Of a stretch of 24,779 bases of DNA, positions 1,204 through 24,021 are shown piece after piece (positions within the stretch are counted from its first letter, which is position 1; each line of letters begins with the position of its first letter). The translations under genes were made by a program, and so were the position numbers. The notes under the pieces were generated by a model, which saw only the letters and a list, made by a program, of their open reading frames with translations, was not told where the DNA came from and made no database searches. Origin of the DNA: an uncultured virus (IMG/VR IMGVR_UViG_3300038443_001555) (taxonomy: Duplodnaviria; Heunggongvirae; Uroviricota; Caudoviricetes); the IMG/VR virus record IMGVR_UViG_3300038443_001555; one strand, 5' to 3'.

Positions 1204-4200
1204 GCTGCCTCCTTGAGTTCGCCACGCTTACGCATGCCGTCGTACATCTCGGCCAGACCCTTGTCGATCGCCTCACGAGTCGGGTAGGCGCCGATCTCGG
1301 TCTGGCGATAGAAGTTAGGGCCGAACGAGATGGTCGAGACCACCTCGAGGTCCATGGTTTTGTACGGCGCCGTCATCGCCGCGTGGCAGCGCGGCAAGAA
1401 CTCGTACAGGTCCTTGATGCGCACCGACCAGACCACCTCGTCGTGGATCGGGCCGTAGCAGATCGCATCGAAGTCGTAGGCCAGGTTGTCGCGCCACATG
1501 CGGCCCTCGGCTAACTTGGTCTGCTCGCCGGCCGCGCCCTGCACCTTGAAGTTCACCGCCTGGCGCTCGGCCTTGCTCTTGTCGAAGCTGGTGCCGTTCT
1601 GCAGCACGTCGCCAAGGTGGCGCACGGCGCCACCCAGCGTACGCACCACGCCGTTCTGCTTGACCTCGTCGCGGATCGCCTGCTTCCACTGCTCGGCAAC
1701 CGGATACATCGCCTCGCGCGCGTCCAGGAACAGCTGCGCGCGTTCGACCGAGATCATGAGCGTTGCGGCCACCTTCTCGGCCATGGCGCCGTATTCGGCC
1801 GTGAAGTTCACCTTCTTGCCCAGCGCGCGCACCTCCTTGGCCACCTTGTACATCTCGTCGCCTAGGGCTTTCTCCAGCGCGCGCTCGTAGTCCTCGTACG
1901 TCCAGTCCAGGCGCTGCTCTTCGCGGATGATGCCCAGCGCCGTAATGGTGTGCGGCGACTTGCGCTTCTCGCCCTGGAAGCAAGACAGTGCGTTCGGATC
2001 CTGCGACTGGAACGCAATCAGGACCATCTCCTGGGAGTCGAAGTCCATGGAGACGATGACGGCGTCCGGCCGGTGCGGCACGATCACCTCGCGGAACTTG
2101 GCCTCCTGCCCGTCGATCTTCTGGTGCTTGGGCAGCTGCTGCTTGTTGGGCTTGGATTCGCTGGCGCGCCGCGTCACCGTCGAGCACTGGTTGTGCTGCG
2201 AGCGCACGCGGCCGTCCTTCCAGTGCGGGAAGTACGGGTACTTCGAATAGAACAGCGAGCGGCGCGTGGTGACCATGCCCATCAGCTTCAGGGCCTCGAG
2301 CACAGCCTTCTGCTCCGGGTCGCACTCCTGCAAGGCGTAGGCGATCGCCAAGAGGTCAGTCTTGGGCGAGCCCTCGCGGATGCCGGCCTTCTTCATCGCG
2401 TCGGTCGGCATGTTGCGCACGCGGACCGGCAAGCCCATCACCTCGTACATCAGCTTTTGCATCTGCAGGGGCGAACCCTTGTTGAACTGCGGCTCGCCCT
2501 TGAAGTAGCTGCGCACGTAGGCGGTGAACTCCTTCCCGGCCGGCATCTCGTGCTCCGGATCGGTGTCCTTCGCTTCCACCAACCGCTGCAGCATGCCGGC
2601 GAACTGCAGGTGCGGCGTGTTCGCTTCGATGAACTTCACGATCTTCGAAGGCGTGCGCATCATCGTGTCCAGCACCTCGCCGGTCACGATGGTGTAGGCC
2701 TCCTTGATCTGCGCCGGCGTGATGTCGACCGTGTAGGTCGGCGGCGCCGTGCCGGCCCAACCTTGCTCGATCAGGTACTGGCGCACCACCGCCCAGGATG
2801 CCTCGTAGGTCTCGTCGTCCTCACGCTCGAGCTCCTTGCAGCGCGCGACCGACACCTCGGTGCCGTCGATGAAGTTCTTCGCGTGCTGGTAGGCCGCGTC
2901 GATCTCCACCTCGAGGTAGGTCTGCCAGCTGTGCTCAAGCTGCATGAACAGCTTGTAGTAGTTGTGCAGCGCAATCGTGCAGATTGTGTCGTCGCAGCCG
3001 TAGCCGACGACGTGCGTGGCCGGCAGCTCGTTCATCTTGTAGCGGCGCGTCTGGGTCTTCACGACCGGCTGGCCGTCGACCTCGACCAGCTCCTGCTTCG
3101 TGATCTCGGTTGGCACCACGCTGGCGGCGATCTCTTCCTCGGTCAGCGGCTCGAAGCGGCCGGTGCCGACGGTGCGATATTCGTACTCCTCGCGCACCAG
3201 GCGGCCACCCTTGAACAACTGCGACGGGTGCGCGGTGATCACGCAGGTCTCGTCGTAGGTCTGCTGGCGGTAGCCCAAGGTGCCGTGCGACCGCTCCTTC
3301 AGGCCCGTCTTGATGTTCTCGTCGACGTAGTTGGCCTCGAACTTCGTATCCAGCACGTTGGGCAGGAAGCCGTGGTAGCCGTTGTCCATCTGGCGCGCGC
3401 CCCACTCATTGAAGAGCACGGCCAGCTCGAACGAGACGTTCTGAATCACCAGCGGGATCGCCTGCGGGATCTCGGCGATCGCGCGCCGCAGGTCTTCGCT
3501 CGCGATGTTGTCGGTATCGGCGTGGTCGACCGAGAAGTAGAACGTGTACTGGTTGTTCGGGCCGAACGTAAGCGCGAGACCCGTCAGCATCGAGCCGAAC
3601 ACGTCGACGCCGTCCGGGTCGCCCAGCGCGGCCAGCCATTCATCCGACTCGTCCGGCGTCGACGTCTCGATATCGAGCGACACCTCGCGCGATGCGAGGA
3701 TGTGCGGCTTGGCCCAGGCCCAGGCTTCCTTGAACATGGCGCCGGTGATCAATCGTTGCCGGCCGTAGTAGCCCTTCAGGCGCGGATCCCGATCAGTTGG
3801 CTGCAGCTGGCGCACCATGCCCGGCTCCCAGTGCAAGGGTTGGCGCATCGTGTTGACCCACTCGGGGCGCAGGCGCGCCAAGTCGAAGCAGCGGATCACT
3901 TGCGGCGCGTTGTCCAGGATCATCTGCAGCAACTTGTCCTGCGGGCCAGAGATGTAATCGGCCAGCGGCGACAGGTCGCTCCTGAGCAGCATGGCGTGGA
4001 TCTCGGCCAAGCCGTCGTAGCCGTACTGGTTGCACAGCTTCTCGAAGCTTTTCTCACCGAAGCCCGGACAGCCCTTGATGTTGTCCGACGAGTCGCCGAC
4101 CAGCGCCTTGTAGGTCGTGACCAGGTGATAGTCGAACGCGCCGTACTTGCAGAACTCGAACATCTGGTTGATCCAGGTCGAGACGCGCGCGCCCCAGGCG

Positions 4201-12529: not shown

Positions 12530-13975
12530 CTACGGGAAAATCAGATTTTTGATGCCCTGCTTCGAGCCCGACGCGCGGTTGACCAGCTCATCGTTGGCGA
12601 AGAGGTTCTTCAGCAGCTGCTCCTGGATCGTGCCGCGCGCCACGAACAGGCGAATGTTCGGGTTGTAGCGCTGGCCCTTCCGGTCGATCCGGCCGGACGA
12701 CTGGATGAACGGGATGGTCGTGGTCGGGATCTGCACGAAGCCGCACTCCCAGCACAGGTACTGGGGGTTCAGGCCGGCACCGGCGCTGCCGGGTTGGGCC
12801 GTCAGGCAGACCGTATTCGGGTCTTCCATGAACTGCTTCACCGAGCGCTTCGAATCAACCTCCGAATACGCCAGTACGCCGCGCTTGCCGATCTCGGCAA
12901 GTCGTGCATCCATGTGCGCGCCGATCAGCCTAGACACGCTGCGGTGCGTGGTCCAGAGGATCAGCTTGCTGGCTGGCAGAGTTTGCTCGCCGATCAGGAT
13001 CTCGCCGCCAAGGTTGATCTCGTCGGCCACGCCGTCGACCAGGTCGAAAATCGCCGAACGCTTCGTCTCATCGCCAGCGAAGTAGCCGAAGTCCAGCACG
13101 ATCTGCTGGGCCGCGTGGTAAAGCCTTGTCGCGGTGGTGGCATCAATCTTGCTTCCGTCGTCCAGCAGCAGGAGCTGCTCTTCCATCAGGCGCTTGTACA
13201 GCGCCATGTGCTCCTTGCTCAGGTCGTAGTAGACCGGGATGTAGTTCGCCTTGGGCAGCGCGCTATGCACTTCCTCCTTCGTGCGGCGAATGCGGCGCAG
13301 GTCCAGATTCGCCTGCAGCACGTCAAGGTTGTGCCACACCTTCGGCTGCTTGAAGACGTCCCGCTCGGCAACGTGGATGTTTTCGAACTGGGCGTAGCTG
13401 GCATAGACCTCAGGCGAGTTCAGCTTCACGTAGCTATAGCCATCGCCGGGCTTGCTCATGATCGTGCCTGACATCATGATCAGGTCACGGCCGCCGGCCG
13501 TAAAGTTGCGCACGTTCTTGAAAAGCACGCCGCGACCCTTGAGCGCCTGCACCTCGTCGACTACGGTCAGCACCTCGCAGCGCAGCAGGTCCTTCGAGAG
13601 CCGGCCGATGTCGTTGTTGAAGACCTGGTACGACATGACCAGCCAGCGCGCGCCACGCACCGGCAACCCCTTGCGCGCCGCCGGCGACCCGGTATAGGCG
13701 ATCGCCTGGCCAGCGCCCGGGATGCTGTTGAGCCAGGCTACCCACTGGGCGATCAGGATGGGCGGCACCAGCACGATGGTCGTGTCAGGCTGCAGGATCA
13801 GCGAAACTGCAGTAGCCACCAAGGTCTTACCGTACCCAACCGGGAGATCCAGCAGTGCACGACGCCATACTGCAGCGCGCTCGATGTCTTCGCGTTGCAG
13901 AGGGTCGAGCGTCATGACACCGCCCAAGGGGTGCGGAAAAGGGTACTTCTCGATAACCTGATCCAGAGTCAGCAT
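12530..13975 (-). CDS. SNF2-family (SF2) helicase
   Basis: DLPVGYGKT, VLVPP, VVDEVQ, MSGT, GAGLN, QSSGRIDRKGQ. Confidence 0.92.
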   Translation of the reverse strand: MLTLDQVIEKYPFPHPLGGVMTLDPLQREDIERAAVWRRALLDLPVGYGKTLVATAVSLILQPDTTIVLVPPILIAQWVAWLNSIPGAGQAIAYTGSPAARKGLPVRGARWLVMSYQVFNNDIGRLSKDLLRCEVLTVVDEVQALKGRGVLFKNVRNFTAGGRDLIMMSGTIMSKPGDGYSYVKLNSPEVYASYAQFENIHVAERDVFKQPKVWHNLDVLQANLDLRRIRRTKEEVHSALPKANYIPVYYDLSKEHMALYKRLMEEQLLLLDDGSKIDATTATRLYHAAQQIVLDFGYFAGDETKRSAIFDLVDGVADEINLGGEILIGEQTLPASKLILWTTHRSVSRLIGAHMDARLAEIGKRGVLAYSEVDSKRSVKQFMEDPNTVCLTAQPGSAGAGLNPQYLCWECGFVQIPTTTIPFIQSSGRIDRKGQRYNPNIRLFVARGTIQEQLLKNLFANDELVNRASGSKQGIKNLIFP

Positions 13976-14667
13976 ACTTCCCTCCTTCGCCCAAACCGCA
14001 CCGCCTGCTCAGCCATGAATTTCTCGTTTAACTTTCTGCCCTTACGAAGATTGCACTTTACCGTCAGCAACTGGATATTGCTGTCAACATTCTTACCGCC
14101 GTTCACTAGGGCAAGAATATGGTCCATGTGGTAGCCGAATTTTCGAAGTGGCCGCTGACAGGGGCAGGCACATCGTCCTTGCTGCTTACCCCACAAGGTC
14201 TCTACTAGATCCGTGGAAAGCTCACCTTCGCTGGTCCCAGCCCGCGCGCGTCGGTTATGGGCATAGAGGCGCGTTTTCTCAGGCTTAGAACGCTTCCACT
14301 TTCGGCATGCTGCTGCATGCTGTTCCGAGTTCGCAGCCAACCAGGCAGCGTTTGTGGCCGCAGTCCGCTCCACATTTCGGGCGCGCCATGCCGTGATATT
14401 CGCTTTCTGCCGCTCAACGTTCGCCTCTAGCCACGCTTTTTGCGTGGCCCGGCGACGTTCACGGTTAGCCGCCACCCACGCCTGAGAAATCCTTCGCTCA
14501 CGCTCAGGATTGGCCGCGCGGCGACGTGCAGCCTTTTCCTTAAAACACGCTAGGCAGCCGCGACTTGAGACGTTACGCTCTGCCGTATGGCCGCGAGAAC
14601 ATGCCTCGCCGGTGAAGTACCTAGTGAGGCCTGCATCGCGAGCCTCAGACCAGCTAACCACCTGCAT
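13969..14667 (-). CDS. free-standing HNH homing endonuclease (232 aa)
   Basis: Start moved to 14667 (GGAGG SD). N-terminal YFTGEACSRGH...CLAC zinc module, Arg-rich helix, C-terminal CACPC...DHILALVNGGKNVDSNIQLL..CNLRK. Visibly more AT-rich than flanking genes. Confidence 0.9.
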   Translation of the reverse strand: MQVVSWSEARDAGLTRYFTGEACSRGHTAERNVSSRGCLACFKEKAARRRAANPERERRISQAWVAANRERRRATQKAWLEANVERQKANITAWRARNVERTAATNAAWLAANSEQHAAACRKWKRSKPEKTRLYAHNRRARAGTSEGELSTDLVETLWGKQQGRCACPCQRPLRKFGYHMDHILALVNGGKNVDSNIQLLTVKCNLRKGRKLNEKFMAEQAVRFGRRREVC

Positions 14668-15100
14668 GGTCAAGCCTCCTCTGTGCAAGCAGTCGCAGTA
14701 GTGGGTACGCCTGCTCAACGATCTGGCCCGACGCCGGCTGCTCGAGCTGGCGCGCGAATTCGCGCAGCGGCAGCAGGCCGGCCACATCGAGCAGCGGCTC
14801 GCCGCCAACGCACGCGCCGTAGCCTTGAGTGATCAGAATCGAGTACAGGCCGTTCTGCGCCGCATCGTAAGACAGCGGCGGTCGGTCCATCTCCATGGAC
14901 AGCCACAGCAGGTTGGCCAGGCCCGGGTTGCTGGCCGCGACCACACCGAAGCCCTGCGGCTTGCCGTCCGGCCGGGCCCAGATCCATGCCTGCGGGTTCG
15001 GCATCCAGTAGGGCCGGGCAAGGTGTTCGCACATGGCGCGCACCTTGCCCATCTCCGGGCTGTGATCCGGCTCAGGTCTGCTCTGGAAGAACAGCGGCAT
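14654..15100 (-). CDS. hypothetical protein (about 148 aa)
   Basis: Start MPLFFQ at 15100 overlaps the upstream stop (TGATG). Confidence 0.7.
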   Translation of the reverse strand: MPLFFQSRPEPDHSPEMGKVRAMCEHLARPYWMPNPQAWIWARPDGKPQGFGVVAASNPGLANLLWLSMEMDRPPLSYDAAQNGLYSILITQGYGACVGGEPLLDVAGLLPLREFARQLEQPASGQIVEQAYPLLRLLAQRRLDHAGG

Positions 15101-15306
15101 CACAGCCCCGCGAGCTTGCGCTCGAGGTCCAGGTCGCGCGCCGGCACTGGCGACCAGCCGATGTAGCGGGCATTGCTGCCGATCTGCGGACCCTTCCAAG
15201 GGCCTGTGGAGATCGAGCCGTCGCGCTCGAGCAGGATGAGGCGCTGGTTCAGCGGCGCCGGCTTGTTGTATTCGAAAGGCCAGTCGTGTTTGATGCAGTT
15301 CTTCAT
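15100..15306 (-). CDS. small hypothetical protein (68 aa), weakly DUF551-like
   Basis: ATGA overlap with the deaminase stop, GGAG SD; YIGWSPVP resembles the HWxPLP motif. Confidence 0.7.
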   Translation of the reverse strand: MKNCIKHDWPFEYNKPAPLNQRLILLERDGSISTGPWKGPQIGSNARYIGWSPVPARDLDLERKLAGL

Positions 15307-15638
15307 ACTTTCTCCGGTGGCGCGCCGATGGTCAGCGCTTTGATTCCCGCCTGTCCGAACAGGACTTCCTGACAGTTGCGGCAGGCGTAGGTGTGGTTCT
15401 CGACATAGGCGTGGCTGCCGCGCGCGGCGTCGCCGGCCAGCATCACGGCGACTTCCTCGGCGTGGCCGATCTGGCCGCACACGCTCTCGCACTTCTCGTA
15501 GCCCTCGCCGGGCAGGCGAGGGCAGGCGGGCTGCGGATGGGCGCACCAGTTCTCGCCGACAAAGCGACTGCCCTCCGGCGTGATGATGGTGCAGCGCACC
15601 TGCAGCTTGGCGCAAGGGCCTAGGGTTCCGGCGGTCAT
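15303..15638 (-). CDS. dCMP/cytidine deaminase-family zinc protein (111 aa)
   Basis: CAKLQV..I...G....GEN, an extra Cys loop, GHAEE, ACRNC (PCxxC variant) and AGI tail. Confidence 0.85.
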   Translation of the reverse strand: MTAGTLGPCAKLQVRCTIITPEGSRFVGENWCAHPQPACPRLPGEGYEKCESVCGQIGHAEEVAVMLAGDAARGSHAYVENHTYACRNCQEVLFGQAGIKALTIGAPPEKV

Positions 15639-16630
15639 TCAGCGGCTCCCGTAGTACGCTTCGAGGAACGCTTTCGCTGCGTAGACATTGATTGCATTGC
15701 CCGCACCCCGCAGGAGAGCCACGCGGCCGGATACCCCATGAGCCAGAGGGAATGTGCCGGGTTCAACTGGCCGCCACTTTCCATCCCTGCAGAAGAGCCA
15801 GTCAGCATCTGCCCAGTAGCCGTTAGTCGGGCCGGGCCGTCCGTCACCGACCAGGACGCCATGGTCGGCAGATCCGTCCCGCGCAGCGTGTCCGCCGTCG
15901 GATCCGTGCCCTTCAGACCGTCCGCCGCGCGCGGCGTCGGCCAGCCCGCTAGGTTCCACGACACCACGTCCACCGTCTTGCGGCTGCTGTCGTTGTTCCC
16001 CGCCGCGTTGTTGCCGTTTTGCGCCGGCGTGCCCGCCATCGGCGTCGGCCAGCCCGCCAGATGCGCGGTCGGCGTCAGGTACGCTCCGTTCTGCCCAGGG
16101 CCGCCCTTGGGACCGTCGCCCGCCATAGGGGTCGGCCACCCAGTCAAGTTCGCCTGGCGCGGCAGCTGGTCGAGGCGCTCCGATCCGTCCGAGCGCGGCT
16201 TGATATCCGCTCCCGAGTCCTTCCAGTCGCGCGACGTTGGCGTCACCCAGCCAGTACGCACGGTCTCGGATGTGCGGGGCACCGACGCCCGCAGACGGAA
16301 ACGCGACCGCCGCGAGGGCGTATCCCAAGCCTTCCATGTCAGCTTGTACAAGGTCGATCCAAGGGTCGACAGCACGGCTTGCAACCTGCTCTCCAACGAC
16401 GACTGGAGGACGGCCGACGCGGATGAGGTGGTGGAAATGGGGCCATAAGTGCCGCTCGTCAGCAAACCCAGCTCCTTCGCCCGCCGCGGAGAAAGGCTGG
16501 CAAGGGCAGCTTCCAGTCCAGAGAGGCTCGGTGTCGGGGATGCCTGCGAGACGCAGTGCAAGTGGCCAGCCGCCGATGCCGGCGAAGAAATGGCATTGGG
16601 AAAATCCGGCAAGGTCTCCGGGTGTGACAT
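15635..16630 (-). CDS. C5 DNA methyltransferase beta-like polypeptide in the +1 frame (TRD-like repeats plus motif IX)
   Basis: AAGGAG SD 8 nt before ATG 16630; four GW(P/V)TP repeats; QLNPAHSLWLMGYPAAW matches motif IX; stop overlaps the deaminase ATG. Confidence 0.78.
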   Translation of the reverse strand: MSHPETLPDFPNAISSPASAAGHLHCVSQASPTPSLSGLEAALASLSPRRAKELGLLTSGTYGPISTTSSASAVLQSSLESRLQAVLSTLGSTLYKLTWKAWDTPSRRSRFRLRASVPRTSETVRTGWVTPTSRDWKDSGADIKPRSDGSERLDQLPRQANLTGWPTPMAGDGPKGGPGQNGAYLTPTAHLAGWPTPMAGTPAQNGNNAAGNNDSSRKTVDVVSWNLAGWPTPRAADGLKGTDPTADTLRGTDLPTMASWSVTDGPARLTATGQMLTGSSAGMESGGQLNPAHSLWLMGYPAAWLSCGVRAMQSMSTQRKRSSKRTTGAAE

Positions 16631-16739
16631 CTTCGATACTCCTTTCGTCGACCACGCCCGGCGCGATCAGGTTCTCTTGGATCAACTCTCGCAGCCAGGC
16701 AGCGGCCGCGGAGTCAAATTCGTTATAGTAGGCGGTCAT
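15639..16739 (-). CDS. C5 cytosine DNA methyltransferase, catalytic (alpha) polypeptide
   Basis: FFAGIGG (I), GSCPCQPFSAAG (IV), DERHLW (V), GEQV (VI), HIRDRAYW (VIII), LRGAGNAI (X). Confidence 0.93.
   Translation of the reverse strand: MTAYYNEFDSAAAAWLRELIQENLIAPGVVDERSIEDVTPGDLAGFSQCHFFAGIGGWPLALRLAGIPDTEPLWTGSCPCQPFSAAGEGAGFADERHLWPHFHHLIRVGRPPVVVGEQVASRAVDPWIDLVQADMEGLGYALAAVAFPSAGVGAPHIRDRAYWLGDANVARLEGLGSGYQAALGRIGAPRPAAAPGELDWVADPYGGRRSQGRPWAERSVPDADRASGGLADADGGHAGAKRQQRGGEQRQQPQDGGRGVVEPSGLADAARGGRSEGHGSDGGHAARDGSADHGVLVGDGRPGPTNGYWADADWLFCRDGKWRPVEPGTFPLAHGVSGRVALLRGAGNAINVYAAKAFLEAYYGSR
15932..16057. repeat. 18-nt direct repeat CGGCGTCGGCCAGCCCGC (15932-15949 and 16040-16057)
   Basis: Exact copies encode AGWPTP in the beta frame; degenerate copies lie near 16127-16141 and 16238-16252. 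Confidence 0.85.
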
Positions 16740-22211: not shown

Positions 22212-22363
22212 TGAGCGAAGTCAAGTTCGACGCCACGGCCTTGCTGGCCGCCCAGCGCCGCGCCGCAGAAGACGCCGCCAAGCAGGCGGCAGCGGCGGCC
22301 CAGCAGCCGGCCGCGCCGGCTGCGCCAGTGAAGCCGCCGGTCTACATCAAGGTCAGGCCGTAA
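22211..22363 (+). CDS. 50-aa Ala/Pro-rich peptide, not in the ORF track
   Basis: TGATG overlap and GGAGG SD; MSEVKFDATALLAAQRRAAEDAAKQAAAAAQQPAAPAAPVKPPVYIKVRP. Confidence 0.7.
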   Translation: MSEVKFDATALLAAQRRAAEDAAKQAAAAAQQPAAPAAPVKPPVYIKVRP

Positions 22364-23144
22364 TCCCTGTGATGTCCTCGAGCGTGCGCTTGACGCCGTT
22401 CTTGGGCATCATCATGACCTGACCGGTCGACTTCTCCAGGCCGACGTAATTGCGGTAGACGTTCGGGTCGTTGACCAGCTCCGGATGGTCGCGCACCAGC
22501 TCGGCGGCGCGCCGCAGATCCTCGTCCTTGGCATAGATGCAGAACACGCAGGAAAAGCGCCGCATACCCATGCGGTAGACGATGTGAGGCTGCTGGCCGG
22601 CATGGGCGATCATGGCGTACACGTACTTCTCGCTCCAGCTGTGCACCGGCAGCCACTCATACCATTCGCGGCCGGCCTTGCTGTTGGTCGCGTCGAATTT
22701 GAAGGGCACCATTTTCTTGCGCTTCGTGCTCTCCTCAGCGCGCAGGCCCTGGCAGTTCACCACCAGATGCCAGGCCGGATGGCCGGCCGCCTTGCGGGCG
22801 TAGGTCAGGTGCCGGATCACCTTCGTGATCGGGCCGCGCTTCAGGTCGGAAGTGCACTGGCGCTGCTCAGGCGACGGAAACATGCCGCGCTCCTCGACCA
22901 TCTGCAGCAAGTCGCGCCGCGCACGGCAGACATGCAGCGGCTCGCCGCTCGTCGTCGCCTGGATGTGCTCGAGCGCGCCGGCCCACTCCACGCGGCCAAG
23001 GTCGGCATGCACGATCACCAGCTGCTCGCGCGGCACCATGCTCCGCAGCAGCAGGTACATCGCCTGACTGTCCTTACCGCCGGAGTGGTTGACGACGAAC
23101 AGCGCGCCGCGCCGGATCAGGGTCGGGATCTCGGCCGGGATCAC
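22353..23144 (-). CDS. PAPS-reductase/DndC-like PP-loop protein (263 aa)
   Basis: GTG start at 23144 (GTGA overlap); NHSGGKDS, QCTSDLKRGPI, GLRAEES..R, LPVHSWS, YRMGMRRFSCVFC. Confidence 0.9.
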   Translation of the reverse strand: MIPAEIPTLIRRGALFVVNHSGGKDSQAMYLLLRSMVPREQLVIVHADLGRVEWAGALEHIQATTSGEPLHVCRARRDLLQMVEERGMFPSPEQRQCTSDLKRGPITKVIRHLTYARKAAGHPAWHLVVNCQGLRAEESTKRKKMVPFKFDATNSKAGREWYEWLPVHSWSEKYVYAMIAHAGQQPHIVYRMGMRRFSCVFCIYAKDEDLRRAAELVRDHPELVNDPNVYRNYVGLEKSTGQVMMMPKNGVKRTLEDITGITA

Positions 23145-23347
23145 GGCTCGATCCCCAGCTTGCCGCGCACAGCGTGCGCGACTGCGATCTTGACCGTGCT
23201 GGGCATGACGTGCTGCAGCCGCAGGCCCGGCGCCTTCACGCGGCAGGCGGCCAGATGGTCCTGCGCTGGCGCCAGCAGCACCTTCTCCAAGGCCTCGCCC
23301 CAGCTCTCGGCTTCCACTTCGTGGACCATGGTGACGACGATTTTCAT
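23141..23347 (-). CDS. hypothetical protein (68 aa)
   Basis: GAGGAG SD; 4-nt overlaps with both neighbours. Confidence 0.75.
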   Translation of the reverse strand: MKIVVTMVHEVEAESWGEALEKVLLAPAQDHLAACRVKAPGLRLQHVMPSTVKIAVAHAVRGKLGIEP

Positions 23348-24021
23348 TTTCTCTCCTCGACAATCTTGATAACGGTTTTCCGGCGCGCGCCGTGCGCTTC
23401 GAACGCGACAATAGCATGCCGGTTTGCCTTCTGGCAAAGCTGGCAGGTCGCACAGGTGACGTATTCCTTGAACTGGGCCGGGCACAGCGTGACCTTGTGA
23501 CCGGCCGGCGTCGCGCCAGCATCCCAACCAGGCGGCACCACCACCACGAGCGGCAGGCCAAGCGGTGCGAGGCGGTCGGCGTCGGCGAGCGAATCGGCCG
23601 ACAAGTTGATCGTAAAGCCTGCCTTGTTGGCGGCGCGCAGCAGCTTGAGGTTCTCCTTCGTCGGCGGATAGTGGGTGTAGGTAAAGGCGCGGCGACCGCG
23701 GTTCGCCTTCACCAGATCGCGCAGTGCCGCGGCGTCGATCGCATCGTGCTGGCCCGGCAGGTCGCCGGCCTGGTTGTGGCGCCACAGCTGGCCCTTGGGC
23801 AGCCGCCGGATCTCGTCGAGGAAGGATTCCCACGGCACGCCGCGCTCGCCGCGCGTCACGCGATCCCAATGGATCGCGAGTGGGAAGTTTTCGGCATAGC
23901 AGCCGTTCTCCTTAAAAGAACAGGTCGACGGACACGTCGACCTGCTGGAAGTTGAGACTGGGATGGGGCCGGTCTTGGCGTTGCTCGAGGCCCGGGTAAG
24001 GTGGACTGGTGGCTGGGTCAC
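23344..24021 (-). CDS. Gp88-like / radical-SAM-like Cys-rich phage protein (225 aa)
   Basis: NAKTG, TCPSTCSFKENGCYA, RHNQAGD, FTYTH, NLSAD, CPAQ...CATCQLC, FEAHG. Confidence 0.75.
   Translation of the reverse strand: MTQPPVHLTRASSNAKTGPIPVSTSSRSTCPSTCSFKENGCYAENFPLAIHWDRVTRGERGVPWESFLDEIRRLPKGQLWRHNQAGDLPGQHDAIDAAALRDLVKANRGRRAFTYTHYPPTKENLKLLRAANKAGFTINLSADSLADADRLAPLGLPLVVVVPPGWDAGATPAGHKVTLCPAQFKEYVTCATCQLCQKANRHAIVAFEAHGARRKTVIKIVEERK

Follow-up and report, generated by a model that had tools for sequence, protein, structure and literature searches.

Introduction

In single-chain C5 methyltransferases, a target-recognition domain and motif IX are located between motifs VIII and X. The multispecific C5 methyltransferases of Bacillus phages are also single chains; between motifs VIII and IX they contain short modules in tandem, which vary in number. 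A nested two-frame methyltransferase layout has, to our knowledge, been demonstrated at the bench for one enzyme only, M.EcoHK31I, the source study of which is reportedly that by Lee, Kam and Shaw in 1995. This enzyme has already been used for targeted-methylation tools. As far as we know, long overlaps on one strand with conservation of both frames are uncommon except in small viruses.

In the sections of PMC2836561 and PMC3404938 that deal with M.EcoHK31I, this enzyme from E. coli HK31 (YGGCCR) is described as two chains, both of which are required. The alpha chain possesses motifs I-VIII as well as X, and keeps the target-recognition domain, and the beta chain, which is read from another frame inside alpha, supplies motif IX only (PMC2836561, PMC3404938). 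M.AquI (CYCGRG) is described in part of PMC3404938 as a two-subunit C5 methyltransferase that is split within the variable region, with motifs IX and X on the small chain. A passage of PMC9409062 gives lambda Rz/Rz1 as an instance of overprinting.

Here we describe a C5 methyltransferase gene (alpha) with a second open reading frame (ORF; beta) nested in its +1 frame. The gene was found in a 24,779-nucleotide stretch of DNA from an uncultured virus of the Caudoviricetes (IMG/VR IMGVR_UViG_3300038443_001555), and this whole stretch is called the window. Compared by the descriptions in the above sections, both in the locus and in M.EcoHK31I the alpha gene of a C5 methyltransferase contains a further ORF that is read in a different frame. 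The preliminary description of this DNA had taken the locus for a similar but longer arrangement of the M.EcoHK31I type. The nested dual-coding over 992 nt and the selection on both frames bear this out in part, but the split differs from the one that these sections describe: the variable, recognition-like region is on beta (331 aa) and not on alpha, the middle of which is filler. The locus further differs in having two blocks that are conserved in both frames, and its beta has, moreover, a conserved block at the N-terminus, which is overprinted on alpha motifs IV-VIII.

M.AquI is similar in that a catalytic chain is combined with a chain that has the distal variable region and later motifs; the difference is that nested genes are not described in that part of the source. 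In lambda Rz/Rz1, a phage gene is likewise wholly inside another and the products cooperate, although these are lysis proteins, whereas the products here would be two halves of one enzyme fold. The Rz/Rz1 overlap is much shorter than that of alpha and beta. By description, tandem modules are common to beta and the multispecific Bacillus phage enzymes, and those of beta are on a separate chain.

The reading that we prefer, and consider fairly probable, is that one gene gives two proteins, namely a catalytic alpha chain and a beta chain that docks on it for DNA recognition, and that the DNA is methylated against host restriction.

Results

Layout of the two frames

The features of the locus are collected in Table 1. 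The overlap covers 992 of the 996 nt of beta, and the nested layout was likewise found in 90 related loci. The two frames had been described as fully overlapping. Both ORFs are indeed present on the minus strand and the +1 frame is open for 331 aa, but the overlap is not strictly full because the beta stop falls 4 nt past the alpha end. The claimed overlap of this stop with the next gene was found, the beta TGA overlapping the next ATG. The G+C content of the window is 0.64, and an antisense ORF of 236 aa also lies over the two-frame gene.

Table 1. Features of the two-frame methyltransferase locus (positions in the window)
Feature	Position	Strand	Basis or remark
alpha CDS, 366 aa	15639..16739	minus	ORF; C5-methyltransferase catalytic (large) domain, unconserved linker and motif X helix
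beta CDS, 331 aa	15635..16630	minus	ORF in the +1 frame of alpha
ATGA junction: stop of the upstream 102-aa ORF overlaps the alpha ATG	16736..16739	minus	Sequence
TGAATGA junction: alpha stop, and ATG of the next ORF (15303-15638) overlapping the beta stop	15635..15641	minus	Sequence
Shine-Dalgarno AAGGAG for beta, from alpha codons 32-34	16639..16644	minus	Sequence; 8 nt ahead of the ATG
beta start codon ATG	16628..16630	minus	Same alignment column in 75/90 loci
alpha motif I, FFAGIGG, residues 51-57 (FxGxG SAM-binding loop)	16569..16589	minus	(Nearly) invariant in 114 sequences
alpha motif IV, PCQ, residues 79-81, catalytic Cys80	16497..16505	minus	P79, C80 and Q81 invariant (114 sequences); aligned to M.HhaI PCQ
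alpha motif VIII, HIRDR, residues 156-160, QxRxR-like	16260..16274	minus	R158 and R160 invariant; region aligned to M.HhaI
alpha motif X core, GNAI, residues 347-350	15690..15701	minus	G347 and N348 invariant; helix 352-365 pLDDT >90
First doubly constrained block: alpha 91-181 (region of motifs IV-VIII) over beta 55-145	16197..16469	minus	Both frames conserved; same-codon fraction 0.71
Second doubly constrained block: alpha 314-361 over beta 278-325	15657..15800	minus	Both frames conserved; same-codon fraction 0.66
alpha linker (filler), residues 182-305, over the beta variable region	15825..16196	minus	alpha unconserved, pLDDT <50
beta W-x-T-P array: GWVTP at 127; GWPTP at 164, 193 and 229	15911..16261	minus	Sequence
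Direct DNA repeats of 36 nt (three copies) beneath the GWPTP modules, spacing 108 and 87 nt (whole codons)	15923..16153		Sequence
beta motif IX-like QLNPAHSLWLMGYPAAW, residues 288-304	15719..15769	minus	Short-motif resemblance only

Catalytic core of alpha

In the profile search, PF00145 matched alpha with 41.4 bits (cut-off, 22), covering residues 75-166 only, and TIGR00675 of NCBIfam gave 30.5 bits, which is under its cut-off of 100.65. The phage family phrog_363 matched residues 1-363 (E 2e-78), and M.HhaI was matched by residues 66-168 with phmmer. When the AF2 model of alpha was compared with M.HhaI, M.HaeIII, DNMT1 and DNMT2, the Foldseek probability was 1.00 (E 7e-7 to 3e-4; approximately 190-220 aligned columns).

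Motifs I-VIII and X had been reported for alpha. We located FFAGIGG, PCQ, HIRDR and GNAI (Table 1), together with the ENV-like GEQV of motif VI at residues 116-119, and all of these are invariant or nearly invariant in 114 sequences. Their numbering within motifs I-X follows the convention of the C5-methyltransferase family. The report of filler between motifs VIII and X also agrees with the present analysis. Residues 1-170 and 350-366 of the AF2 model are confident, and the pLDDT of residues 176-344 is below 50. Conservation is seen in residues 1-170 and 305-362, with an unconserved middle, and no profile match was detected in residues 176-344 in the Pfam search. In the linker, the G+C content at alpha codon position 1, which corresponds to beta position 3, is 0.83-0.97. 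Judging from the motifs and the predicted structure, alpha is a C5 DNA methyltransferase core without a conserved middle, where a disordered linker is predicted. Alpha could be active without beta.

Family and modules of beta

Beta matched two PHROG families, phrog_31772 (E 1.8e-39) and phrog_1008 (E 3.4e-38), both of which are labelled DNA methyltransferase. Among 8000 candidates, 7617 called proteins were related to beta, and phmmer with beta returned 11,054 representative clusters with an E-value cut-off of 0.001 and 8,203 with one of 1e-10. Residues 55-145 and 278-325 are conserved, and conservation of beta is also seen where the alpha middle is unconserved.

The number of W-x-T-P motifs per beta is 1-5 across the 90 loci, and P0241, a relative of 627 aa, contains at least ten such modules. 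Since the three 36-nt repeats in the window are spaced by whole codons, modules may be gained and lost by in-frame duplication.

Residues 288-304 show a short-motif resemblance to the L-x-P...L-[QM]-G-F-P stretch of four classical enzymes. In 104 sequences, L289, W296, L297 and W304 are invariant, and most positions from N290 to P301 show conservation of 90% or more. The C-terminal stretch of beta resembles motif IX in this respect only, and is a candidate for it.

No match was found in Pfam for beta or its 104 relatives, nor in NCBIfam for beta. The PDB profile search with beta gave 0 hits, and only chance matches (E >=0.35) were obtained for its C-terminal 62 aa against PDB. With hhalign, the probability for beta against the four classical enzymes, which came from genomes of related loci, was 0.1%, although this negative result is weak because the template alignment was tiny. 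The AF2 model of beta alone was poor (mean pLDDT 58.6), and with it Foldseek detected no solved fold in PDB at E<=0.001. The look-alikes of beta in the ESM Atlas are unnamed viral clusters only. Beta is a second conserved protein that probably supplies the DNA-recognition half of the methyltransferase.

Beta-like units in longer proteins

Beta might instead be translated and not complete alpha, sharing DNA with it through overprinting only. It would then act on its own or with other enzymes, for instance as a portable factor for DNA binding or specificity that serves methyltransferases of several classes, or it would have some other role in the phage. The Pfam, PDB profile and hhalign searches described above, which gave no tie of beta to parts of C5 methyltransferases, are in line with this, and so are the longer proteins. 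Among 27 longer matches, beta-like units are fused to an N6/N4 domain (PF01555) in four and to a D12 domain (PF02086) in one, and no PF00145 was found in those chains; the proteins recovered in a scan of P0244 were all relatives of its N6/N4 domain. On the basis of the N6/N4 and D12 fusions, beta is perhaps not dedicated to alpha. However, since phage Cr-LKS3 has an N6/N4 methylase gene immediately downstream of its two-frame gene, the fusions may be read-through of adjacent genes. Moreover, beta accompanies alpha in all 90 loci, and alpha has no conserved recognition region of its own.

P0265 (633 aa) also argues against independence, because an alpha-type N-terminus is followed in the same frame by seven GWxTP repeats and motif X, that is, the repeats are in cis with an alpha-type core. 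It is the only one of the 27 longer matches in which such a core is paired with in-frame GWxTP repeats, and it is a single sequence from one contig; the seven relatives examined all carry the repeats in the +1 frame, in the usual two-frame layout. Overall, we consider it unlikely that beta acts apart from alpha.

Initiation signal of beta

A Shine-Dalgarno sequence 8 nt before the beta ATG, built from unusual codons, had been proposed. The site was confirmed, and in the 14 other ORFs of the window AGG accounts for 4.3% of the Arg codons and AGT for 4.8% of the Ser codons. An SD-like 4-mer is present at 68 of the 75 loci with a column-matched ATG (AGGAG at 54). Of the remaining 15 loci, 13 have another start with an SD-like 4-mer ahead of the conserved block. 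The alpha codons at this site were then compared with those elsewhere. In the Arg33 column, AGG is used in 55/89 loci, versus 7.9% of other Arg codons; in the Ser34 column, AGY is used in 72/83 loci, versus 43% elsewhere; and Asp37, which supplies the AT of the beta ATG, is encoded by GAT in 79/90 loci, versus 36% of other Asp codons. These results show that beta has a conserved initiation signal of its own, and that codons 33, 34 and 37 of alpha are strongly skewed to the SD and the ATG.

This signal bears on whether a single polypeptide, a fusion of catalytic and recognition parts, is made by a programmed frameshift from alpha into the +1 frame. Such a product would fit with the +1 offset of the frames on a common strand and with the position of the recognition-like part, downstream of motifs I-VIII. 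Against it stand the conserved ATG and SD of the +1 frame, and the product would be without motif X. In addition, conservation of beta sets in at residue 55, far upstream of where motif VIII ends; beta is thus read in parallel with the catalytic motifs of alpha. We regard a frameshift product as very improbable.

Selection on both frames

Whether both frames stay open in homologues was analyzed with the 90 loci, which are non-redundant. The +1 frame is open over at least 70% of the alpha length in 86/90 loci (median, 0.90). Of the other frames, +2 reaches this length in 0/90 loci, and the three on the antisense strand do so in 10/90, 0/90 and 0/90. The openness of the +1 frame holds in loci with a G+C content of 0.52-0.57. 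When the alpha codons were shuffled synonymously (500 shuffles per locus), no more than 5/500 reached the observed open length in 61/90 loci; in the most G+C-rich loci, up to 59/500 did so. Thus, the open +1 frame exceeds chance.

The same-codon fraction was calculated among pairs with an identical alpha residue. It is 0.71 and 0.66 in the doubly constrained blocks, versus 0.42 before the beta start and 0.48. The suppression of synonymous change in alpha is confined to the conserved blocks of beta. These results support a long same-strand dual-coding gene with purifying selection on both frames.

An untranslated shadow ORF, arising from G+C-rich codon bias or from a constraint on the DNA or RNA of alpha, would be compatible with the G+C content of the window, the antisense 236-aa ORF and the shuffles of the most G+C-rich loci. 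It is, however, at odds with the opening of the +1 frame alone, including in the loci of lower G+C content, with the conservation of beta residues where alpha is unconserved, with the restriction of synonymous suppression to the conserved blocks of beta and with the selected start codons. The probability that beta is such a shadow is very small indeed.

Occurrence and annotation

The two-frame layout is found in isolates and cultured phages, among them a complete chromosome of Yersinia aleksiciae, BcepC6B, K1G, Bas70 and RcJoli. We rejected, as almost certainly wrong, the idea that the layout comes from a frameshift error in assembly or from the decay of a once single-frame methyltransferase into a pseudogene. 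A related locus with a broken alpha frame in a polished long-read MAG (L012) might speak for it, but the layout recurs in these isolates and cultured phages and in all of the 90 loci.

It had been expected that standard annotation would miss this arrangement. In the nine phage records examined, alpha only is annotated in four, as expected, but both ORFs are annotated in four and beta only in one. Among the called proteins of the window, beta is present (P0121, 100%) and no protein identical to alpha was found. The gene caller seems to have retained beta at the expense of the catalytic chain, both in the contig studied here and in phage Cr-LKS3. The nested ORF is labelled "putative Mte8-like protein" in K1ind2 (GU196280), and paired "DNA methyltransferase" CDSs are annotated in K1G, PhiXhv-5 and PhiXhv-28. 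These labels, like phrog_1008 and phrog_31772, refer to the same nested +1 ORF in homologous genes, and carry no function, partnership or selection analysis. In the part of PMC5582158 that contains it, the Mte8 label is merely listed. No paper on the nested ORF of this phage methyltransferase family was found in a literature search that covered main texts, mostly from outside the subscription journals.

Discussion

According to the preferred two-protein reading, alpha would be translated from the ATG at 16739 and would provide the SAM loop, Cys80 for catalysis, motifs VI and VIII, and the helix of motif X. Only a disordered linker would join motifs VIII and X, in place of a recognition domain and motif IX. 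Beta would be translated from the internal ATG (16630) with its own Shine-Dalgarno sequence, in the +1 frame through nearly all of alpha. It would consist of a conserved N-terminal block, the variable W-x-T-P array and the conserved C-terminal stretch that resembles motif IX. Docking of beta on alpha would form a two-chain enzyme in which beta provides DNA recognition, and this enzyme would methylate the phage DNA against host restriction. We infer that beta is translated, binds alpha and sets the specificity, and that the role of the enzyme is anti-restriction. By analogy with M.EcoHK31I, beta may complete alpha as a chain for recognition and motif IX.

A further, tentative idea, to which we give a modest chance, is that beta serves as a specificity subunit for multiple targets and is built of modules. 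Every W-x-T-P module would read a different DNA site, and modules would come and go by in-frame duplication. The subunit would be portable, also serving the N6/N4 adenine or cytosine methyltransferases to which it is sometimes fused.

About 1 kb of DNA is read twice in this gene, with approximately 140 codons doubly conserved, across a family of more than 8,000 representative clusters. The two-frame gene offers a clean test for methods of detecting selection in overlapping genes, and is a warning for gene callers. If the split between catalysis and recognition is as proposed, it would be a natural scaffold, ready for use in targeted-methylation tools. If recognition is the task of beta, thousands of "orphan" cytosine methyltransferases of phages are half annotated, and their specificity would not be predictable from the annotated chain. 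Should the modular multi-target reading also be true, one overprinted gene would give these phages a tunable, broad-spectrum shield against host restriction.

Gene organization

The ORF listing confirmed the two-frame arrangement noticed in the preliminary description: a C5-methyltransferase frame, alpha, and a nested ORF, beta, both on the minus strand. The start of beta is 109 nt downstream of that of alpha, which places beta in the +1 frame of alpha, and codon position 1 of beta corresponds to codon position 2 of alpha. The two frames share 992 of the 996 nt of beta. The stop of an upstream 102-aa ORF and the ATG of alpha form an ATGA overlap. At the other end, a TGAATGA junction joins alpha and beta to a 111-aa ORF located immediately 3′. 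This ORF possesses an HAEE...C-x-x-C pattern, which we take to be reminiscent of the zinc sites of cytidine/dCMP deaminases; no Pfam or PHROG match to it was detected.

The window forms a phage module for replication and nucleotide metabolism, with genes for a ligase, a 1190-aa DNA polymerase, a dNMP kinase, a MazG-like protein, an exonuclease, a primase, a helicase, an HNH/endonuclease VII and a RecE-like exonuclease. Two further proteins, one with a PAPS-reductase domain (PF01507, phrog_424) and the other a DUF7227 protein (PF23872, E 3e-91), overlap or abut and may be a DNA-modification pair of the same phage.

Features of the methyltransferase region and other positions in the window
Feature	Coordinates	Strand	Length	Remark
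Alpha	15639-16739	-	366 aa	ORF listing
Beta	15635-16630	-	331 aa	ORF listing
TGAATGA junction	15635-15641	-		alpha stop, ATG of next gene, beta stop
First block conserved in both frames	16197-16469	-		alpha and beta conservation
Second block conserved in both frames	15657-15800	-		alpha and beta conservation
YYNEFD of alpha	16713-16730	-		alpha residues 4-9
ORF 3′ of alpha and beta	15303-15638	-	111 aa	HAEE...C-x-x-C pattern
HNH/endonuclease VII-like ORF	13969-14808	-		phrog_1035, E 6e-22; between helicase and methyltransferase region
PAPS-reductase-domain and DUF7227 proteins	22353-24021	-		
Antisense ORF	15738-16448	+	236 aa	GC3 0.83; over methyltransferase gene

Openness of the second frame in related loci

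Related loci were gathered from species genomes (29) and from viral contigs (80 of 312). Eight partial or atypical loci (L012, L014, L020, L024, L025, L026, L028 and L029) were left out and exact duplicates were removed, leaving 90 loci with the window counted. Both frames stay open in these homologues, a check that had been proposed with the original observation: the longest open stretch of the sense +1 frame was at least 70% of alpha in 86 of the 90 loci (median 0.90). The sense +2 frame reached this length in 0/90 loci, and the three antisense frames in 10, 0 and 0. Since the antisense frames are so seldom open, the 236-aa antisense ORF looks like a G+C shadow. The +1 openness was also found at a G+C of 0.52-0.57, for example in Yersinia, Rosenbergiella and Tatumella.

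The synonymous codons of each locus were permuted 500 times, keeping the alpha protein and its codon pool. The observed open length was reached by at most 5 of the 500 shuffles in 61/90 loci, and by none in 23; in the worst locus, which is G+C-rich, 59 shuffles reached it. L012 (Rhodoferax MAG, 1501-2548) is the sole related locus with a broken alpha (72 codons open), and two other frames are long there; a long-read assembly frameshift is the probable cause of the break.

Selection on both frames

Conservation of alpha covers residues 1-170 and 305-362, with none in between. That of beta covers residues 55-145 and 278-325, and the middle of beta varies in length. Thus, both frames show conservation in two blocks. 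When sequence pairs with an identical alpha residue were compared, the share with the same codon was 0.42 before the start of beta and 0.48 over the unconserved N-terminus of beta, and rose to 0.71 and 0.66 in the first and second shared blocks, respectively. Since a change at alpha position 3 alters beta position 2, these higher fractions reflect purifying selection on the beta protein. In the middle region, the G+C at alpha position 1, which is beta position 3, was 0.83-0.97. This is the signature of codon usage set by the beta frame.

The window has AAGGAG 8 nt upstream of the ATG of beta. The ATG occupies the same column in 75 of the 90 loci, and a Shine-Dalgarno (SD)-like 4-mer was detected in 68 of these 75 and AGGAG in 54. 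Among the other 15 loci, 13 possess, upstream of the conserved block of beta, an alternative start codon accompanied by an SD-like 4-mer; none was flagged in the remaining two, L030 and L082. The alpha codons of which this signal is made are biased: Arg33 is AGG in 55/89 (7.9% of other Arg codons), Ser34 is AGY in 72/83 (43% of other Ser codons) and Asp37 is GAT in 79/90 (36% of other Asp codons). The SD of the window had been described as built from unusual AGG and AGT codons, and this holds, as AGG makes up 4.3% of the Arg codons and AGT 4.8% of the Ser codons in the 14 other window ORFs. Selection acts on both frames and on the start signal of beta. Openness, conservation, same-codon fractions and start signal provide strong comparative support for the proposed dual-coding gene.

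The alpha chain

PF00145 matched alpha at residues 75-166 only (41.4 bits; cut-off 22), M.HhaI matched residues 66-168, and phrog_363 (DNA methyltransferase) covered alpha end to end (E 2e-78). The motifs FFAGIGG, PCQ, GEQV, HIRDR and GNAI were invariant or nearly so among 114 aligned relatives. AlphaFold2 modelled residues 1-170 and 350-366 with confidence and gave residues 176-344 a pLDDT below 50. Foldseek aligned the model with M.HhaI, M.HaeIII, DNMT1 and DNMT2 over ~190-220 columns (E ~1e-6). Thus, alpha consists of the large catalytic domain and the motif X helix, joined by a stretch that lacks conservation and is not modelled as folded. Residues 3-21 at the N-terminus (YYNEFD..., pLDDT >90) form a conserved strand and helix that precede the FxGxG strand (residues 48-51), an order unusual for this fold.

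The beta chain

No Pfam or NCBIfam match to beta was detected. Two PHROG families carrying the label DNA methyltransferase did match beta, phrog_31772 (E 1.8e-39) and phrog_1008 (E 3.4e-38). Among called proteins, 7617 of 8000 scored candidates were relatives at E<=0.001, and the 120 relatives listed have 253-505 aa, lack a Pfam domain and are mostly annotated as hypothetical. An exhaustive phmmer search against representative clusters gave 11,054 matches at E<=0.001, 8,203 at E<=1e-10 and 2,059 at E<=1e-30.

W-x-T-P modules are found in the middle of beta, one of them GWVTP (residue 127) and three GWPTP (residues 164, 193 and 229). Three 36-nt direct DNA repeats underlie them, with spacings of 108 and 87 nt, that is, whole codons. 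The number of W-x-T-P motifs per beta was 1-5 among the 90 loci, and P0241, a relative of 627 aa, has at least 10 modules.

Beta had also been described as carrying motif IX. A short resemblance was found: QLNPAHSLWLMGYPAAW in the C-terminal block is similar to the L-x-P...L-[QM]-G-F-P stretch located ahead of the GN motif in four classical enzymes translated from related genomes. Statistical support for it was not obtained, as the PDB profile search with beta gave 0 hits, PF00145 matched none of 104 beta relatives, and hhalign against the four-sequence template of the classical enzymes gave a probability of 0.1%. The last 62 aa of beta gave chance hits only in the PDB. The beta-only model was poor (mean pLDDT 58.6; best at the helix and hairpin of residues 71-116 and the segment 267-281) and matched no solved fold.

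Longer relatives and fusions

Links between beta-type sequence and METHYLTRANSFERASES were sought in 27 longer proteins matching beta. In P0265 (633 aa), seven GWxTP repeats share one frame with an alpha-type N-terminus (PF00145 at 77-173) and a terminal GN motif. Judged from its protein sequence alone, this one sequence from one contig reads as a single-chain form with repeats where the recognition domain belongs. In seven of seven relatives of P0265, the repeats are in the +1 frame.

In five of the 27 proteins, beta-like units are fused to N6/N4 (PF01555) or D12 (PF02086) methyltransferase domains. In P0244 (877 aa), two tandem beta-like units are followed by an N6/N4 methyltransferase domain. 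The Cylindrospermopsis phage Cr-LKS3 (OM373202) has an N6/N4 methylase gene (1591-3441) directly 3′ of its two-frame gene, and therefore the fusions may be read-through of neighbours. They may also leave room for a role of beta beyond alpha.

Annotation and literature

The arrangement had been expected to escape standard annotation, which holds for part of the phage records. Among nine examined, alpha alone is annotated in four (BcepC6B, RcJoli, Bas70 and pEp_SNUABM_08), both ORFs in four (K1ind2, with beta as 'Mte8-like protein', K1G, PhiXhv-5 and PhiXhv-28) and beta alone in one, Cr-LKS3. In the latter, beta (807-1544) is named 'methyltransferase' and the catalytic alpha (626-1594) is unannotated.

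The nested ORF is already present in databases: tblastn with beta found 235 phage records, with a query coverage of at least 80% in 75, and the protein collection contains the window's own beta (P0121, 100%). No identical alpha was found in this collection, where the best match was 67%. The GC3 of beta is 0.78 and that of alpha falls below the 0.72 filter; automatic calling on the source contig seems to have kept beta and dropped alpha. In the portions of the literature covered, including PMC5582158, PMC9409062 and PMC3025963, the arrangement is not described for this phage family.

Proposed mechanism and origin

According to the portions consulted of PMC2836561 and PMC3404938, the split of M.AquI falls within its variable region, and M.EcoHK31I requires both of its chains: alpha, with motifs I-VIII plus X together with the recognition domain, and beta, with motif IX, whose coding sequence lies within alpha in a different frame. 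The nested topology is common to M.EcoHK31I and the present gene. Here, however, the recognition-like region is on beta and not on alpha, beta is about as long as alpha, and conservation extends to both frames in two blocks.

The gene plausibly originated from a single-chain gene, in which the part for recognition and motif IX would have slipped, between motifs VIII and X, to the +1 frame. Later, an upstream start would have been gained and a new N-terminus of beta overprinted on motifs IV-VIII. This origin is supported by the motif IX-like stretch of beta, which lies ~10 codons upstream of the GN motif of alpha, the normal IX-X order.

The best-supported reading of the sequences is a two-chain enzyme, likely functioning as a heterodimer. 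Alpha would perform SAM binding and catalysis. Beta, presumably translated from its internal start on the same mRNA, would bind alpha and contribute DNA recognition and the motif IX-like element. The pair would then methylate phage DNA, possibly as an anti-restriction measure.
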